From IMG/VR virus record IMGVR_UViG_3300024307_000003, positions 1-64,000 of that record: DNA of 64,000 nucleotides. The stretch is one strand, 5' to 3'. Position numbers and translations under genes: made by a program. This DNA comes from a virus. A model generated the notes under the pieces. The model saw only the letters and a list, made by a program, of their open reading frames with translations, was not told where the DNA came from and did no database searches. Positions 25,994 through 63,093 of this stretch are shown piece by piece; position 1 is the first letter of the stretch, and each line of letters starts with the position of its first letter.

Positions 25994-26085
25994 GGACGTA
26001 ATACAGGTATTGGCTTTCCTGTGCCCAACTCATAATTGGTTCTCTAATTGCTAGAGTCTCGGTTCGATTCCGAGTGCGTCCACCA
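25994..26085 (+). tRNA. tRNA with CAT anticodon (Met/Ile2) and long variable arm
   Basis: Acceptor GGACGTA/TGCGTCC+ACCA; anticodon arm CCAA-CTCATAA-TTGG; variable stem CTCTA/TAGAG; T arm CTCGG-TTCGATT-CCGAG. Confidence 0.8.
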
Positions 26086-26606: not shown

Positions 26607-26683
26607 GCTCTGGTATCCCAATAGGCAGAGGAACAAAATTTAAAATTTTGTAAGTGTGGATTCGAATTCCACCCAGAGCACCA
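26607..26683 (+). tRNA. tRNA-Leu(TAA), short variable loop
   Basis: GCTCTGG/CCAGAGC+ACCA; CAAAA-TTTAAAA-TTTTG. Confidence 0.85.
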
Positions 26684-52357: not shown

Positions 52358-53641
52358 TTATTGTTTTACTTTGATATTTTTGTTTTTAGCTGCTTGCGCT
52401 TGCAAGGCAGCATTAAATCCATCTTTCTTGACTTCTGGTTTGATTTCAGAATCACTAACACCAACTTCCTTCATTGCTTCAACTTCGTCTTTCATTTTAG
52501 CAATAGTGGCGTCTTTAGTGGCGATAACGTCAGCAGCCATTTTCATAGCAGCATCAAACATATCAATAGAGACAGACCCATTGAGAGCGGAACTTGCATA
52601 GGCATTTACATCAACCCCGGCAAACGCCCATTCTTGTGCTTTGGCTTTGAAACCTTCCAGTTTCAGATTATCAGCTTCATCTTTAGCTGCTTTAAGTTGA
52701 GCAGCGAATTCTTCTTTTTGTTTTTCAAAAGCGGCTTGAAGATCAGCAAACTGAGCTTTCAGTTCATTATCTACACCAGCTTTAGCAGTAGGTTCTGCCA
52801 TTGGTTTATTTACCCCTTCTTTCAAATAGGAATTAAATTCATCACGGGTCATTAGCTTGTGAACCAAACCCTTTTCTTGTGCTTCTTGGGCAAGGAACAC
52901 ACCAGCTTTGGTGTTTATAATTGCCTCTTCAGAAAGCCCCATCATTTCAGACGTATATCCAACAAACTCTGAATACAACGTACTCACCTTGTTTTGAATA
53001 TCAGTCAGAAACTCCTCTCTCCATCCACCATCTGCATTGAACGGGATCTTGTTATCCCCAGCAAAGATGTAAGTTCTTTCAACTCCAGCTTTCTCCAGAG
53101 CCTTATTAACGTTCGTGAGCTGTACAACAACTCCAATACTTCCTGCTTGTGCTGAAGGATTCATAATTACTTCATGAGCAGAAACAGCCAAACCATAAGC
53201 AGCAGAAGCAGCATATCCGTCAACATAGGAAATCAGACGAACACCAAACTCGTCTGCTTTAGATCGCATGTAGCGGCCAGTCTCAAACATTCCGTAGGCT
53301 TCTCCACCCGGAGAATCCACAATCAAAGCAATCGTTTTGTACCCAGCAGCAACTGCTGTATCAAATTGAGTGACAATGGATTGGTAAGATGTATTCTCTG
53401 TGCAGGTGGCCATATCAAAATAAGATTTGTATGTCAGCACACCATCAACATTAATAGCCCCAATCTTGTCATCTCCCGGAATAGGATTCCGACGAGCTTC
53501 CTTGGTTTGGATGTTGGCAAACTCAATAGCTTCGTCATTACGAGAAGCCAGATACTGCTCAATCCTTTCCAATACATCTGGAGACACTAAGTGTGGGGTG
53601 TTGTATAATGCTTTTGTAATTCTTAATAGCTGTCGTGCCAT
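52358..53641 (-). CDS. S49 prohead protease-scaffold fusion
   Basis: VDSPGGEA, AASAAY, AGSIGV; C-terminal coiled-coil scaffold. Confidence 0.9.
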   Translation of the reverse strand: MARQLLRITKALYNTPHLVSPDVLERIEQYLASRNDEAIEFANIQTKEARRNPIPGDDKIGAINVDGVLTYKSYFDMATCTENTSYQSIVTQFDTAVAAGYKTIALIVDSPGGEAYGMFETGRYMRSKADEFGVRLISYVDGYAASAAYGLAVSAHEVIMNPSAQAGSIGVVVQLTNVNKALEKAGVERTYIFAGDNKIPFNADGGWREEFLTDIQNKVSTLYSEFVGYTSEMMGLSEEAIINTKAGVFLAQEAQEKGLVHKLMTRDEFNSYLKEGVNKPMAEPTAKAGVDNELKAQFADLQAAFEKQKEEFAAQLKAAKDEADNLKLEGFKAKAQEWAFAGVDVNAYASSALNGSVSIDMFDAAMKMAADVIATKDATIAKMKDEVEAMKEVGVSDSEIKPEVKKDGFNAALQAQAAKNKNIKVKQ

Positions 53642-55119
53642 TATTTACTCCTGTTCCCGGCAGCTTTATCACCACCACCTGTTCCTGATCCAGTACCCGA
53701 TCCCAATCCAGACTCCATACCTTGTCCGGCCTTGGAAGCAGCAGGAGGCTCTTTCACAACCTCTTCAGGATCACCATCAATACTCTCAAGACCCAACACC
53801 TTACGAACACGGTTGTACTCGTCTCTACGGCCTTCTACAGCACCTACAGCGAATATCCGTTGAATGGCTTGGGACATCACATCTACATCTTCTTTCTCAA
53901 TGTCTCCGTACTTCAGGATAGGAGTTTCTTCCTTGGTCCATTCATTGTAGAGAGCCAGTTGCTCAATCAATTGTTTCTGAAGAGTGTGGGTGATAAAGGA
54001 CAAATGTTCTTCTGCGGCTTGTGCTACAAGATTTGTTTTGCTGTCTGCCAGAGAGAAACTACCGTGAGAGTCGTTGCCGAGATTGATAAGGTCAGCAAAA
54101 TAAGCCATCAGTATCTCTGTCTTACGACGCTGTATGATAGCTCCTACATCATGGTTTTTCTTACCTCCGTCAACACCCATAAGGGATACGTTGTACAGAG
54201 GCTTACCTGTGTCGGTGTAATCTACAGGGCACACAATGCACGATTGGTTTCCATTCTGGAAAGCCTGTGCCTGATTGAACATGGTGTTGTAGAGAACAGC
54301 TTCTTCACTCTTAGGGTCCATAGTGGCCTTAACCATTACAGACTTGGGAAGGTCTACTTTCAGAACACCTGACATGTCCTTGCTGATACCTGTTCCTTCA
54401 ATATCTTCAAAAAGACATTTGAATTTCCAAGTGACGTAAGCTTTAAGTAGAGGAGAGCGCCCTTCTGGATTATTCTTTGTTGAGTTGTAAGAGAACAATA
54501 AGAGTTTAGAGAGTGGAATATCTACTGTTGTAGATACAATCCCATTACCATAAAGCCTACTGGATTTGACGTTCTGTCTAACACCCTTAAGCTTTCTTCC
54601 TGTCTCTTTGTCCCAGAGCCATTTATCAATAGATATTTGTGCTCTTGGTTCTAATCCTTTAACACGATACCAACCTTCGTATTCCCCTTCTTTGATAGTC
54701 TCAAATATCTTTTCAAGGATTGAGAATCCTGCCCAAGAATAGGTTAGAATGTCGTTCTTAACTGTCTGGAAAGATTGTCCATCCAGATTGTCAAACATCC
54801 AGTTTACGAAGTCAGCGTTGGCTTTCGCCTTTTCGTTTGTTTTATCAAGAGGCTCTGCATAGATAGGGACTTTCTTCACTAGCATTAAGAACAAGTCCAC
54901 TGCTGTAGCGACAGAAACATCATAAAGCATCGTCTTGAACGTCTGAATGCTCTGAGGGAATACTAGTTCCCGTTTAGCTTCTTCATAGATACGGCCATTA
55001 ACGATGTTTAATCCTGAGTCCCCTATTGCAGAGTCCTTGAATCTCATCACCCCTGTTGAAAGGTCATAAGAAATACTATCTAACTCTGACAAGTAACCTC
55101 CGGAGGAAATCTCCATCAC
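53641..55119 (-). CDS. portal protein
   Basis: AGFSILEK...NPEGRSPL...GSFSLADSK. Confidence 0.9.
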   Translation of the reverse strand: MMEISSGGYLSELDSISYDLSTGVMRFKDSAIGDSGLNIVNGRIYEEAKRELVFPQSIQTFKTMLYDVSVATAVDLFLMLVKKVPIYAEPLDKTNEKAKANADFVNWMFDNLDGQSFQTVKNDILTYSWAGFSILEKIFETIKEGEYEGWYRVKGLEPRAQISIDKWLWDKETGRKLKGVRQNVKSSRLYGNGIVSTTVDIPLSKLLLFSYNSTKNNPEGRSPLLKAYVTWKFKCLFEDIEGTGISKDMSGVLKVDLPKSVMVKATMDPKSEEAVLYNTMFNQAQAFQNGNQSCIVCPVDYTDTGKPLYNVSLMGVDGGKKNHDVGAIIQRRKTEILMAYFADLINLGNDSHGSFSLADSKTNLVAQAAEEHLSFITHTLQKQLIEQLALYNEWTKEETPILKYGDIEKEDVDVMSQAIQRIFAVGAVEGRRDEYNRVRKVLGLESIDGDPEEVVKEPPAASKAGQGMESGLGSGTGSGTGGGDKAAGNRSK

Positions 55120-57444
55120 TCTCTGTGATGTAAAAATCCACTAATATTTGTAAATTGATTTTGAACTGGTGCCTGTACAGATGCTGACATGGCTCCGGCT
55201 AATCCTTTAATGTCCACTACTTGTTCTCTAGCGAGGAAATTGAAACACGATGCTGAGCTATCCGCCCAATCAATTTTTACCCGCGCTGTAGCTTCTTGAC
55301 CAACAAACTGCTCTAATTCCTTTAAGAAGGCTTCAAGAGATGCTTGGTTTTTGAAAGAGGACTTTACAATCCTCACCAGTCCATTCATACATGCAGCAGA
55401 AAATGGTTCAAAACGTGTAAGCTTGCTTTTATTTCCCGGCATAGGATCAGCTCTTACAACAAAACCTTTCTCTATAAGTTTTTTTGCGGACTCAAGAAAC
55501 TCTGTATCTCCTGCTTGAGCAGGATCGCGGCTGAACACAACGGAACACTCAGGCCCATCTGACTCGGCCTGTTTTTGTATCAGAAGATCACGTTCACCCG
55601 GAAGCCTTCTGAACTTACCAAAAATACCCGTATCTGCGTCTGTACATTCAGGATGATGATTACCCATCAAATAATAATATCCATCTTTATCTTTAGCCAT
55701 ATGCGTTGAGGCTGTGTAGTCTGGATACTTATTAATGTCTGTCGGAACTGAAGAGGCTTTATCCCATGCTCTTGCATGTTTAGCGTTTGCTGGTACTTTA
55801 TCTACTACAGTCAACCAATCCCTATTGAAATAACTTCCTTCGTTAAGGACGTATTTCCAACACCCATCTAACAATGCAGCTTTCTCTGCTTTAGTGTTAG
55901 CATCAAGAACGTCTGCGTATTCGGGGTTGTTGTCCAACAACTTTTGGTTGTCGGTCAGCTTGGAAGGTATGAAGGTGTAGGTAAGAGGATTCTTACCGGG
56001 GAAGTTAGTGCGGAGTTCTTCTTCACTCCAAGAAGTGAAGAGATTTCCTTCGAAGAATATGAAGTAGCGTATTTTTCCAGACAATTCCAGAATTGCATAA
56101 CCATCTTCATCAAGCCAAGGTTCTATCCATTCCTTAATCCAGCAATCAGGTTCAGGGTTACAACTCACCCGAACAAAAGACCTATGTACGGAAGCAGAAC
56201 GTGTTCTTGTTCTAACATAATTGAAATGATCGAACTTGAACTGTGTTCCTTCATCGAAATATATACCTGTATACTGAGCACCTTGATAAGTCTTCTTGTG
56301 CTTATCTAATTCGAGATAAGAAAATTTACAGCTTGCTCCTGAAGGGAATATAATTCTATGGTCTTTCTCTTTTATTCTAGCCTTACCTTTAAACTTACCA
56401 GTAAGGGGTCCAGAAGTATGAACAAGGAAGGGAAGATAAAGCTCCTGAGCTTCTGGCCATAAAGATTCATCCAGCTGTGTTGTGTTCTGTCGAAAATAGA
56501 TAGCTTTGTATTTAGGATCATCTATATACTTCAAGCTATCCATGAGAAGGGCGTAGCTCTTGCCGCCGCCTGCTGCCTATTTGTTTCTCAAGTCTCCTTG
56601 AGGATCGGACTATATCTTCACCCTTTTAGGGGCACCTTGTTTCGGGCTGTAATTACAGCCCTACTCTACTCCCTTCCAGCTATGCCGTGGTTTCGATAGT
56701 CTCTGAACGTAGTTCTTTTGTCAGGTCGCATAACTTCCTGCCAGTAAGAAGTTCACCAATATAGTCTTGTCTGCAATGTAGCCCAAAGTAATTCTTTATT
56801 TCTTTGTAGCTTTTACCTTGTCTGTGCATAACGAATATTGATGTTATCTCATCCATTGATAGGTGAGAAAAGGTCTTACCTTTTGTTTTTATATTTCCAG
56901 TTCTTACAGCGTGACGCACATTCTCATAACCGCTAACATATTCTAAATTTTCGAGCCTGTTGTTGAGTTTTATGCCGTCTTTATGGTTTACTTGGTGCTT
57001 ACCTTCTGGTTTTAATATAAATGTTTCAGCAATTAGAATATGCGTCCGTACAGAACGTCTTTTATTGCCATCTACAAGTATAATTTCTTCGTATCCGTCC
57101 CATGTAATTTTACCTTTAAGACGGGCACACCTTTTTCCTTGAATAAAACCTTCACTATCTGCAAAATAACCGGGAAAATTAAAAATCTCTTTCTTCAAAA
57201 GAACCTCCGCTGCTGATTGTCTAATCTTATTTGTTTTCATACCTTCACGCTCTATGTTACCATACACGTTGTGGTCAAACAAGCTTTAAAGAGTTTCCAG
57301 CAATTAAAGGTGTTTATTTTGACGCATTACTGCGAAAGGTGGCACATTTCTACCACCGTAAAATACTAAATGAATCTCGGTAGGAACATTTATGAAAGCC
57401 GATTGTGGACCGCGCTGTGGTTGTACAATATAGTATTCACTCAT
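55116..57444 (-). CDS. terL: terminase large subunit, two exons (57444-57352 and 56576-55116)
   Basis: Splicing yields PQRGPQSAF...VFYGG|AAGGGKS Walker A; Walker B IYFDE; SCNP; RAWDKA nuclease motif. Confidence 0.93.
56577..57351 (-). mobile_element. group I (IA-type) self-splicing intron in terL
   Basis: P1 GGTGGT/GCCACC with U-G; P AATTGCTGGAAA, Q AATCAGCAG, R TCAGAGACTA, S AAGATATAGTCC; terminal G at 56577. Confidence 0.93.
56680..57198 (-). CDS. intron-encoded HNH homing endonuclease
   Basis: HILIAETFI...QVNHKDGIKLNNRLENLEYV...EN.RHA; probable TTG start after GGAGG (alternative ATG at 57240). Confidence 0.88.
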   Translation of the reverse strand: MKKEIFNFPGYFADSEGFIQGKRCARLKGKITWDGYEEIILVDGNKRRSVRTHILIAETFILKPEGKHQVNHKDGIKLNNRLENLEYVSGYENVRHAVRTGNIKTKGKTFSHLSMDEITSIFVMHRQGKSYKEIKNYFGLHCRQDYIGELLTGRKLCDLTKELRSETIETTA

Positions 57445-60221: not shown

Positions 60222-60231
60222 GTTCTCTCCG

Positions 60232-60262
60232 AAAGAAAAAAGAAGAGCTACATTTGCAGCTC
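60232..60262 (-). terminator. intrinsic terminator just upstream of the first late gene
   Basis: AGAGCTGCA-AA-TGTAGCTCT-TCTTTTTTCTTT. Confidence 0.65.
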
Positions 60263-60282
60263 TGAGGTAGGAGAGCTAATCT
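60254..60282 (+). promoter_or_regulatory. candidate plus-strand promoter for the ncRNA block
   Basis: TTGCAG-17-TAATCT (same -10 as at 14206), with TAGGAGA/TCTCCTA inverted repeat over the -10. Confidence 0.5.
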
Positions 60283-60288
60283 CCTATG

Positions 60289-60810
60289 AGGAGAAAGCTT
60301 ATCGTTCTTGTTATTGTTCAATGCTTTCTTCGAAACAAAGAAAAGCCCGCAACTAGAAATCTCTAGGCGGGCTGAAGGCTCTATAACGAGCACCAATAAA
60401 AACGGATACGTTAATGTTGGCTATGTCTGCACGGCTGGCACGGCTGTGCTTGTTGTTATTTCCCAAGAGGAGGGCAATGAAATAGTTGTGGGTAGTCAGG
60501 CCGAACTTCATTTCTGACTCCTGCGACGTTAAGGGTCTGCTTGCAGGCTTTCTCCCTTCGCTTCTACGTGTGGTATCGGATCACCAATTTTACCCACACA
60601 AATACATTCTCCTAACTAGTATTCAGCCGCTAGGAACCTCCCGGCAACTGTGGAAAATGTATTTATATAGGCACTAGATTTACCAACATGCTCTTCGTGG
60701 AAACCCACTGTAATATATCCTATGATCTACTCTGTTCTTTCACCAACCACAAAAGTTAACGAACTACTGAGAGTTAGGATATATTACGGTGAGGGCCTGT
60801 TGATTTCCCT
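60289..60810 (+). ncRNA. large multi-domain structured RNA (or tandem small RNAs), unassigned
   Basis: Successive helical domains 60290-60331, 60383-60456, 60487-60598, 60600-60664 and 60684-60802; G-U pairs favour the plus strand. Confidence 0.6.
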
Positions 60811-60829
60811 GTTATCAGGCTCAGGGAAG

Positions 60830-61024
60830 ATGCTGGAGGAAATACAGCAAGCATCTCAATTCACTGAATATCTGGATTCTTCCAGTTTAACATTTATTGA
60901 TTATGCAGAGTTATACGCTGCAAATAACAATTCTTATAAACCAGAGGATTTTCTTTCCAACCCCTTGTTGGAAAGCTTATTCCTCACAACCGCAAGGATT
61001 TCTAATTTGTGCAGAACTGGATAA
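60830..61024 (+). CDS. possible small acidic protein inside the RNA island
   Basis: MLEEIQQASQFTEYLD...; AGGGAAG SD; same strand as the flanking structured elements. Confidence 0.4.
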   Translation: MLEEIQQASQFTEYLDSSSLTFIDYAELYAANNNSYKPEDFLSNPLLESLFLTTARISNLCRTG

Positions 61025-61066
61025 CAATCTTTTTTCTCTTGACACGCCATCAATATTTCTATTCAT

Positions 61067-61283
61067 TTCGTGGAATCGGGATTGCTATCTCATTCTCTGT
61101 CGGCTTTCCTGCTCTTCCAACATCATCTTAGGCGCGACCTAAGCACCATCGAATTTACGTTAGGCGTTGTTGTGTTTCAGCAAGCCTAGTCCCGGCAGGC
61201 CACGCGCATAGCGTCCGGTCTTCTCTACTATCATTGATCACTGCATCAACACAAAGCTGTGATTTTCGAGTAGTCTCTACGTA
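61067..61283 (+). ncRNA. ~215-nt structured RNA, unassigned
   Basis: Closing helix CGTG..GGGATTGCT/AGTAGTCTC.TACG with G-U pairs; several hairpins; TTGACA at 61039. Confidence 0.55.
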
Positions 61284-61356
61284 AAACTTTTAATATTCTG
61301 GTGGCGTTTTATGACGCGAATATCAGCAGACGCTGCCCGTCGCACGGGGCCATAAT

Positions 61357-61600: not shown

Positions 61601-61726
61601 TGGGGGAGGCTGGAGTCGAACCAGCAAGCCAGATAAACTACTCACAAGGCTTAAAGCCGGCTGCCTTGTTTTCACTCACGAGACTACCCCTCTCTGGGGC
61701 TGCGTATCCCATTCCGCCACTCCCCC
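61601..61726 (-). ncRNA. 126-nt tRNA-like RNA with expanded anticodon domain
   Basis: GGGGGAG/CTCCCCC acceptor; D arm GCG-GAATGGGATA-CGC; T arm GCTGG-TTCGACT-CCAGC; ~75 nt between the D and T arms. Confidence 0.75.
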
Positions 61727-61732
61727 GTAATT

Positions 61733-61809
61733 TGGTCGGAGATACAGGATTTGAACCTGTGACATTTTGCTCCCAAAGCAAACGCGCTACCAGACTGCGC
61801 TAATCTCCA
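61733..61809 (-). tRNA. tRNA-Pro(TGG)
   Basis: TTTGC-TTTGGGA-GCAAA; CCA. Confidence 0.93.
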
Positions 61810-61820
61810 ATAAACGATCC

Positions 61821-62127
61821 GGACACCACTTGGAAACAACAACGTTGTCCCTCGGCCCGCCTTGGCGCGAGCACAGGGAAGAGTATGAATCCTCCCTGCT
61901 GGGTAGCGCTCGATCTCATCCGGTGTTCCCTTTTCAGGGAGTCGCTACGTTCGTGTGTCCAGAAGGGGAGGAACTATGTTCCCACGAATCTTCTGGCACG
62001 CAATTGATTAATCTTAAAATGTGCCTACCCGAAGTTACCTTCCGTCTGCAAGCAACAAACTCCCTTGTCAGTTCAAGGGAAGGTAGGGCTTAAGTCATCA
62101 CCGGTATGGAGGCCGGGAGAGGTGTCC
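61821..62127 (-). ncRNA. ~307-nt pseudoknotted RNA at the head of the tRNA operon, unassigned
   Basis: Terminal helix GGACACC/GGTGTCC; 8 or more internal stems; two pseudoknots; G-U pairs favour the minus strand. Confidence 0.7.
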
Positions 62128-62174
62128 TCAGAAGATGGAACACATAATTAACAAACTTCCCTATTTGTATTTAC

Positions 62175-62203
62175 ATCCTAGCAGATTATTTTCTGTTTGT
62201 CAA
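62175..62203 (-). promoter_or_regulatory. sigma70 promoter of the ncRNA/tRNA operon
   Basis: TTGACA-17-TAGGAT with extended TG. Confidence 0.8.
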
Positions 62204-62219
62204 CACCCAATCTGAAATT

Positions 62220-62525
62220 TTATACAGCTACAGGGAAGCGTCTGAATTCGGCTACAACACCTTTCCCAACTTCCTGCTTACGCTCTTCTTCCCTGTTGGC
62301 AGGTTCGCCCATAAGCTTCTCAGCAGCTTGGGCGTACAGCCAATGCAGCTTCAGGATTTTATCCAGAATCCCAGCACGAGTAGCAGGATTAACCGCAGGA
62401 TCAAACGCCAGCTTCGACATGGCCTCGTAGGCAGGAACTGCGTCTTTGTTCACCAGATCCTGAAGCTCTGTGATATTGTCAAATGTCTTCTTGGCTGCTC
62501 TTACATTCTTGGATACATTAGCCAT
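62220..62525 (-). CDS. hypothetical helical protein (possible terminase small subunit)
   Basis: 101 aa with GAGGA SD; upstream of terL; function inferred from position only. Confidence 0.45.
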   Translation of the reverse strand: MANVSKNVRAAKKTFDNITELQDLVNKDAVPAYEAMSKLAFDPAVNPATRAGILDKILKLHWLYAQAAEKLMGEPANREEERKQEVGKGVVAEFRRFPVAV

Positions 62526-63064: not shown

Positions 63065-63093
63065 ATTTTAGCAATAATTTTTTAGTTTGTCAA
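63065..63093 (-). promoter_or_regulatory. sigma70 promoter
   Basis: TTGACA-17-TAAAAT with extended TG. Confidence 0.8.

Follow-up and report, generated by a model that had tools for sequence, protein, structure and literature searches.

What kind of element occupies the 307 nt that lie between a promoter and a run of tRNA genes in the genome of an uncultivated phage: an RNA gene in its own right, a leader that serves the tRNAs behind it, or a spacer whose structure is incidental? The locus belongs to a 93,686-bp virus record of IMG/VR (CheckV completeness, 69%), the first 64 kb of which form the window, that is, the whole 64,000-nt stretch of DNA analyzed here. The source is an uncultivated freshwater myovirus, tailed and lytic. 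The reading that we favor, with a probability of roughly 55%, is that the element is an independent, stable, structured noncoding RNA of ~307 nt and the first cistron of a promoter-driven, RNA-only phage operon, which would be released by tRNA punctuation and would act in trans. The parts of the locus are as follows.

62217–62246, minus strand: second, weaker promoter-like site (TTCAGA, 18-nt spacer, TAAAAT), overlapping the stop of the upstream ORF
62175–62203, minus strand: sigma-70-type promoter, predicted by consensus match only (10/12 positions; TTGACA, 17-nt spacer, TAGGAT)
62128–62168, minus strand: leader of ~41 nt, between the predicted transcription start and helix P1
61821–62127, minus strand: structured RNA, 307 nt, with nt 1 at 62127
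61810–61820, minus strand: 11-nt spacer between the structured RNA and tRNA-Pro
61733–61809, minus strand: tRNA-Pro(UGG) with encoded CCA, the first tRNA of the operon (ARAGORN, Rfam)
55116–56543, minus strand: terminase large subunit (TerL)
53641–55119, minus strand: portal

The prohead protease and collagen-like tail fiber genes are also on the minus strand, together with those for the terminase and the portal, and the plus strand from ~63.5 kb carries genes for a dNMP kinase, ThyX, a class II-type ribonucleotide reductase, PhoH, and a GH108 endolysin. An HNH endonuclease gene (56680–57282, minus strand) sits directly upstream of the terminase large subunit gene. According to TerL, the closest cultured phages are the phAPEC8-like (Phapecoctavirus) myoviruses of ~150 kb, at an identity of only 42–44%, and parts of the locus are present in public runs from riverine, freshwater, and groundwater metagenomes. 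The original prediction had placed the RNA behind a TTGACA-17-TAGGAT promoter and 11 nt ahead of tRNA-Pro, and both placements were confirmed, with the RNA ending at 61821 and the tRNA-Pro starting at 61809. The −35 element is at 62203–62198 and the −10 element at 62180–62175, a TG lies just 5′ of the −10 element (extended −10), and the predicted transcription start is near 62168; a strong promoter-like site also occurs further upstream, at 63093. On the minus strand, the order of elements is structured RNA, tRNA-Pro, a 126-nt tRNA-like RNA, tRNA-Thr, tRNA-Gly, and tRNA-Glu, followed by further ORF-poor structured sequence, and the stretch from 62203 to 60244 looks like a single RNA-only operon.

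Two downstream parts of this stretch have features of their own. The 126-nt tRNA-like element (61601–61726, minus strand), which fills the interval between tRNA-Pro and tRNA-Thr, combines a canonical T-arm with a perfect acceptor stem of 7 bp; it was called neither by ARAGORN at default settings nor by Rfam at the gathering score, and relaxed ARAGORN settings modeled it, doubtfully, as a tRNA with the anticodon UUA and a 35-nt intron. Copies of it with two or three differences occur in a freshwater run (X3). Past tRNA-Glu, ~1.1 kb (60231–61356) is without a convincing ORF on either strand, folds with z-scores of −2 to −4.8 in 300-nt windows, and is closed by a strong minus-strand terminator (60263–60244). 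Rfam gave no match at E-values up to 10 on the ~1.1–1.2 kb downstream of the tRNAs.

The RNA strand of 61821–62127 contains no open frame longer than 51 codons. An antisense ORF of 108 codons runs across the RNA and was searched so that the spurious ORFs of relatives might expose their RNA sequence; it had no PHROG family match and no relative among 5.8 billion proteins. Its three matches among 1.8 billion cluster representatives were dismissed as chance, being long tandem-repeat proteins in which weak matches are summed (~30 bits for a single repeat). The G+C content of the 307 nt is 53.7%, compared with 41.9% in the window (12 points higher). The minimum free energy (MFE) is −122.4 kcal/mol vs −96.9 ± 5.7 kcal/mol in 100 dinucleotide shuffles (z = −4.5), none of which was as stable, and including the leader and tRNA-Pro in the calculation does not alter the MFE fold. 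The complementary (plus) strand folds more weakly than the RNA strand, at −112.2 kcal/mol (z = −3.0). In the predicted minus-strand fold, 68% of the bases are paired (~105 base pairs), and 10 of the pairs are G-U, so the minus strand is pointed to as the RNA strand. Two of the three tetraloops are of the GNRA type (GUAA and GAAA); the mean in 150 shuffles was 0.07, and none of them had two or more. As a modeled quantity, the folding signal is the thermodynamics of one sequence.

These values bear on whether the stretch could be a functionless spacer with incidental or decaying structure, formed, for example, by degenerate RNA genes or by a recombination patch in a mosaic tRNA island. Such a spacer would suit the negative fold z-scores that extend over the whole 2-kb region on both strands. 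However, a z-score that no shuffle attained, two GNRA loops in a sequence whose shuffles have almost none, the G+C enrichment, and the strand asymmetry are poorly accommodated by it, and neither Rfam nor relaxed ARAGORN detected a residual tRNA signal. We regard a spacer as improbable. The parts of the predicted structure are listed here.

62121–62127 with 61821–61827, minus strand: P1, 7-bp closing helix (pair probability, 1.00)
62115–62111 with 61857–61853, minus strand: P2, nested
62110–62099 with 61925–61914, minus strand: stacked helices including CCGGUG/CACCGG, nested
62013–62094, minus strand: three-way-junction domain (nt 34–115) with hairpins of 7, 6, and 4 bp
61951–62003, minus strand: CCAGAAG/CUUCUGG domain with an inner 6-bp hairpin
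61927–61940, minus strand: 5-bp hairpin capped by the GAAA tetraloop
61943–61948 with 61908–61903, minus strand: candidate tertiary pairing GUAGCG/CGCUAC, single-stranded in the MFE fold except for one base
61868–61912, minus strand: domain B (nt 216–260), with a 5-bp base, an internal loop, and a 10-bp hairpin (probability, 0.94)
61833–61867, minus strand: two small 3′ hairpins ahead of the 3′ strand of P1 (3 bp with the loop CAAG; 8 bp with the loop GUU), neither of them T-arm-like

Most helices have pair probabilities of 0.74–1.00, with lower values (0.55–0.84) for P2 and the helices stacked on it. In this model, the body would be closed by the 7-bp terminal helix and would comprise three or four internal domains, and the two GNRA tetraloops, of which GUAA caps the 4-bp hairpin of the three-way-junction domain (62042–62031), would be able to make tertiary contacts. 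The 11-nt GAAA receptor was sought and is absent. The leader adds no pairs to P1 and forms only a small separate hairpin. In domain B, the 10-bp hairpin (61890–61899/61873–61882) ends in a 7-nt loop, UUCAUAC, shaped like an anticodon loop (U33, CAU, A37); such a form would arise by chance in ~1 of 16 cases and may mean nothing.

The original prediction had listed ten helices and proposed two pseudoknots. All ten helices can be located in the sequence where they had been placed, but they are not compatible as one structure: TACCTTCC/GGAAGGTA and TCCCTTG/CAAGGGA have bases in common, as do GGCAC/GTGCC and CCAGAAG/CTTCTGG, and the 11-bp version of P2 displaces a 3′ hairpin. Forcing TACCTTCC/GGAAGGTA, GGCAC/GTGCC, or the 11-bp P2 costs 4–8 kcal/mol in each case relative to the MFE. 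The long-range CCGGTG/CACCGG pairing, put forward as a pseudoknot, turned out to be an ordinary nested helix that closes the large 5′ domain (pair probability, 0.84). As for the H-type pseudoknot, its CCAGAAG/CTTCTGG helix is part of the predicted fold, and its TTCGTG/CACGAA arm (nt 140–145 with 173–178; 61988–61983 with 61955–61950) is a possible pairing with which an equally good nested helix, extending the CCAGAAG helix, competes; the pseudoknot geometry would also leave only 3 nt to cross a 7-bp stem. The sole extra pairing between segments that are free in the MFE fold is GTAGCG/CGCTAC (nt 180–185 with 220–225), and a helix of this kind appeared in 11 of 150 shuffles (7%). On these models, a double-pseudoknotted architecture is no more than a hypothesis.

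At the gathering score, Rfam 15 identified only tRNAs. When the 321-nt stretch alone was scanned with cmscan under permissive filters and at E-values up to 10, the only two matches were an antisense SAM riboswitch (E = 1) and a human lncRNA fragment, both at chance level; no tmRNA, RNase P, SRP, 6S, group I or II intron, self-cleaving ribozyme, T-box, GOLLD, ROOL, or raiA was detected. ARAGORN found no tRNA or tmRNA over 61821–62127 at either the default or the 80% threshold, with introns of 0–400 nt allowed. The earlier statement that the RNA lacks signatures of tmRNA, RNase P RNA, and SRP RNA was borne out by cmscan and ARAGORN. The more general claim of a compact noncoding RNA of no catalogued class also held, given the ORF-free sequence, the strand-specific fold, the promoter motif, and the empty Rfam and ARAGORN results.

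Individual candidates were rejected on specific grounds. For tmRNA, there is no T-arm, CCA, or tag frame, the loop of the 3′ hairpin has 3 nt, and GGAU rather than NCCA follows P1. For RNase P RNA, none of the Rfam RNase P models, which encode the conserved P4 core, matched the 321 nt at E-values up to 10. A tRNA gene with an intron, or a group I intron, was rejected with the empty ARAGORN (introns of 0–400 nt) and Rfam results over 61821–62127; in the particular case of tRNA-Leu(UAA) with an intron, CUUAAG resembles the anticodon loop, but the stems that would go with it are absent, as is a T-arm. The complementarity of nt 156–179 to the 5′ part of tRNA-Glu (71%) looks like chance.

The RNA might nevertheless be a tmRNA, RNase P RNA, GOLLD/ROOL RNA, or intron-bearing tRNA so diverged that the models missed it. 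Its 7-bp terminal helix recalls an acceptor stem, and its context in a phage tRNA island fits GOLLD/ROOL, but the scans just described were empty even at relaxed settings, the hallmarks of tmRNA are lacking, and a length of 307 nt is well below that of ROOL and GOLLD; we consider such an origin highly unlikely. Equally slight is the chance that the RNA is a ribozyme, either self-cleaving or a phage-borne catalyst of pre-tRNA processing. This candidate activity had been raised in the original prediction: only the size, the multidomain fold with GNRA loops, and the position beside tRNAs speak for it, whereas no Rfam ribozyme family (RNase P, group I, or self-cleaving) matched at E-values up to 10, no conserved core is definable without homologues, and no sign of cleavage appears in the data.

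An RNA library contains the sequence: one contig of 471 nt (depth, 3.9×) from a metatranscriptomic library of riverine origin (run X2) aligns to 61735–62205 with 0 differences and extends from the promoter region through the leader and the entire RNA into tRNA-Pro. This is a single low-depth contig from one study, which may have been part of the campaign that yielded the source sample; DNA carry-over is possible, and contigs give neither ends nor strand. Because its upstream end lies 2 nt before the −35 element, the contig does not confirm the predicted start. If it is RNA-derived, some transcription starts further upstream, and the weaker promoter-like site (62217–62246), whose −10 element ends 12 nt before the upstream end of the contig (62205), may be in use. 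Its other end falls 2 nt short of the CCA end of tRNA-Pro, which, in one contig from one study, was not used as evidence of processing. Runs X3 and X5 have coverage over the tRNAs only; missing cover, whether of the RNA in the DNA runs or of the flanks in the RNA run, carries no evidential weight. Cotranscription with the tRNAs, which had been proposed from the start, is supported in terms of placement, with the promoter upstream and the RNA joined to tRNA-Pro in the RNA-library contig. Coprocessing with the tRNAs, proposed at the same time, would follow only from the known action of RNase P and tRNA punctuation.

The joined contig is also what a cis-acting leader of the tRNA operon would produce. 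Such a leader would set transcript stability, folding order, or tRNA processing, or would sense a signal that tunes tRNA output; rRNA and tRNA operon leaders, and riboswitch and T-box leaders, are its models. The RNA fills the interval from the promoter to the first tRNA, which begins just 11 nt after it, and it contains a terminator-like hairpin with a U-rich run at 62081–62060. However, the contig reads through that hairpin, and the riboswitch, T-box, and operon leader classes were rejected, as no aptamer, T-box, or other leader model matched at E-values up to 10 apart from the chance-level antisense SAM riboswitch (E = 1). Furthermore, the RNA folds independently of its leader and of the tRNA, and 307 nt with ~105 bp, a self-closed body, and GNRA loops go far beyond the needs of known tRNA leaders. 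We rank a cis-acting role second, after a trans-acting stable RNA, as a conceivable but rather unlikely function.

Over 62096–62390, a 354-nt DNA contig from groundwater (run X6) matches the window at 99% identity, and it then continues with 59 nt unlike the window. In the RNA, this break corresponds to nt 32, within the single-stranded segment that links the closing helices to the first internal domain. The contig may be a low-coverage chimera, or the interior of the RNA may differ between near-identical phages. If the contig is real, the RNA body is not conserved even among close relatives; the breakpoint hints that the interior might be exchangeable between closely related phages, and divergence of this kind inside the RNA would also be compatible with a spacer.

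The search for relatives covered isolate phages, virus and metagenome collections, and prokaryote genomes. The RNA is a single copy in its own record, and blastn (word size 11) against 50,697 GenBank phage records gave no match to it. Within IMG/VR, nhmmer detected only tRNAs at 71 TerL-related loci, and no homologue of the RNA was reached by a single-protein TerL scan, at 108 loci anchored on the phage-type tRNA-Pro sequence, or with exact RNA patterns; the closest relative there (L002; TerL 63% identical) had no match in its whole record, which is cut 673 nt upstream of TerL. A covariance model (R1) built from nt 24–208 of the RNA, rather than from the full 307 nt, identified no homologue in 49 sources, 100 sources, or 40 whole related virus records. 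Exact patterns of the RNA returned at least 119 chance 18-mers in the metagenome collection, none of them extending, and one chance 20-mer among 185,579 prokaryote genomes (in a Desulfovibrionaceae MAG). Neither a pattern from the neighboring 126-nt tRNA-like RNA nor the alignment of the upstream 101-aa ORF against metagenome and viral collections reached a homologue of the RNA. Because no homologue was found, no base pair is backed by covariation. The likeliest relatives are on Logan contigs: the nearest TerL relatives (P0004 and P0010; 71% identical) are encoded there, and so is P0122, which is 63% identical to the upstream 101-aa ORF; its contig, of 88 kb, seems also to carry the terminase P0010.

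The empty searches are in keeping with a spacer. The intrinsic evidence, i.e., the z-score, the strand asymmetry, the GNRA loops, the G+C content, the noncoding sequence, the promoter, the modular fold, and the RNA library, favors a real RNA gene over an incidental spacer. The RNA is an orphan that is credible as an RNA gene: the type of element is known, and the sequence is absent from Rfam.

In mitochondrial transcripts and in MALAT1/mascRNA, the 3′ end of an upstream RNA is made by RNase P at an adjacent tRNA or tRNA-like fold, a mode of release termed tRNA punctuation. The present locus shares with these systems a structured RNA upstream of a tRNA, at a spacing of 11 nt; unlike those eukaryotic or organellar systems, the downstream element is a true tRNA-Pro, and the RNase P cut is one that we infer. 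The host RNase P would cut at 61810/61809, the 5′ end of tRNA-Pro, and because it must cut at position +1 to mature the tRNA, the RNA would acquire its 3′ end in the same step and would carry an 11-nt tail. Exonucleases would trim this tail and the ~41-nt leader back to the closed P1/P2 stack, where they would be stopped, so that the closed end would shield the body and make the RNA stable. The released RNA would act in trans during infection, most likely as a scaffold or decoy that binds protein or RNA. No gene for Ro/TROVE, RtcB, or a CCA-adding enzyme was identified in the 93.7-kb record, which is incomplete, and therefore no partner protein is suggested.

RNAC and RNAD (the "species 1 and 2" stable RNAs), each roughly 120–140 nt in length, lie in the tRNA cluster of phage T4 and are processed together with the tRNAs. 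They are non-tRNA RNAs of a lytic myovirus that are expressed in infection and whose function is still unknown (PMC9697503). Like them, the RNA described here is a non-tRNA RNA inside a phage tRNA transcription unit, on the same strand, with a promoter upstream and tRNAs downstream; unlike them, it has 307 nt and heads the operon. RNAC and RNAD showed no blastn similarity to it in the GenBank phage records, among which T4 is assumed to be included. ROOL, for its part, is much longer than 307 nt. GOLLD and ROOL are ornate RNAs of phages and prophages that often lie beside tRNA islands, sometimes with tRNAs inside the transcript; their folds contain several pseudoknots, neither a protein partner nor a function is known for them, and many GOLLD RNAs are longer than 800 nt (PMC12286853). 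The present RNA likewise comes from a phage record and lies 11 nt from a run of four tRNAs, but it matched neither covariance model at E-values up to 10 and is much shorter. By analogy with T4 RNAC/RNAD and GOLLD/ROOL, a trans-acting stable RNA of a phage tRNA island is the most likely reading.

A more ambitious version of this reading, which we hold to be doubtful, is that the RNA is the founder of an undescribed family of ~300-nt pseudoknotted phage RNAs with GNRA-mediated tertiary structure, release by tRNA punctuation, and an activity of its own, such as catalysis, RNA-only assembly as in ROOL/GOLLD, or service as a decoy against host RNA-targeting defenses. Phage tRNA islands repeatedly house structured RNAs of unknown function, as T4 RNAC/RNAD, GOLLD, and ROOL illustrate, and one that is compact (300 nt) and well bounded, in a simple operon behind a clean promoter, would be an easy object of study. 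It is a single sequence at present, and its value is that of a well-delimited candidate rather than a discovery.

In distant relatives (TerL 40–45% identical), tRNA arrays also precede the terminase and are interrupted by many gaps of 200–500 nt that lack ORFs; some of these gaps fold well, and none matches Rfam or the 307-nt RNA. In one group (L007–L009, L011, L016, L040, and L052; TerL 40–43% identical), the arrays comprise 11–23 tRNAs with recurrent ORF-free gaps of 190–510 nt, one of which recurs between tRNA-Thr and tRNA-Gly; several fold at z-scores of −3 to −5, and Rfam identifies tRNAs only. Elsewhere in the window, on the plus strand, ARAGORN called a 92-nt tRNA-Met (25994–26085) with the anticodon at position 38, which scores below the gathering threshold of the Rfam tRNA model; the neighboring tRNA-Leu(UAA) (26607–26683) reaches it.
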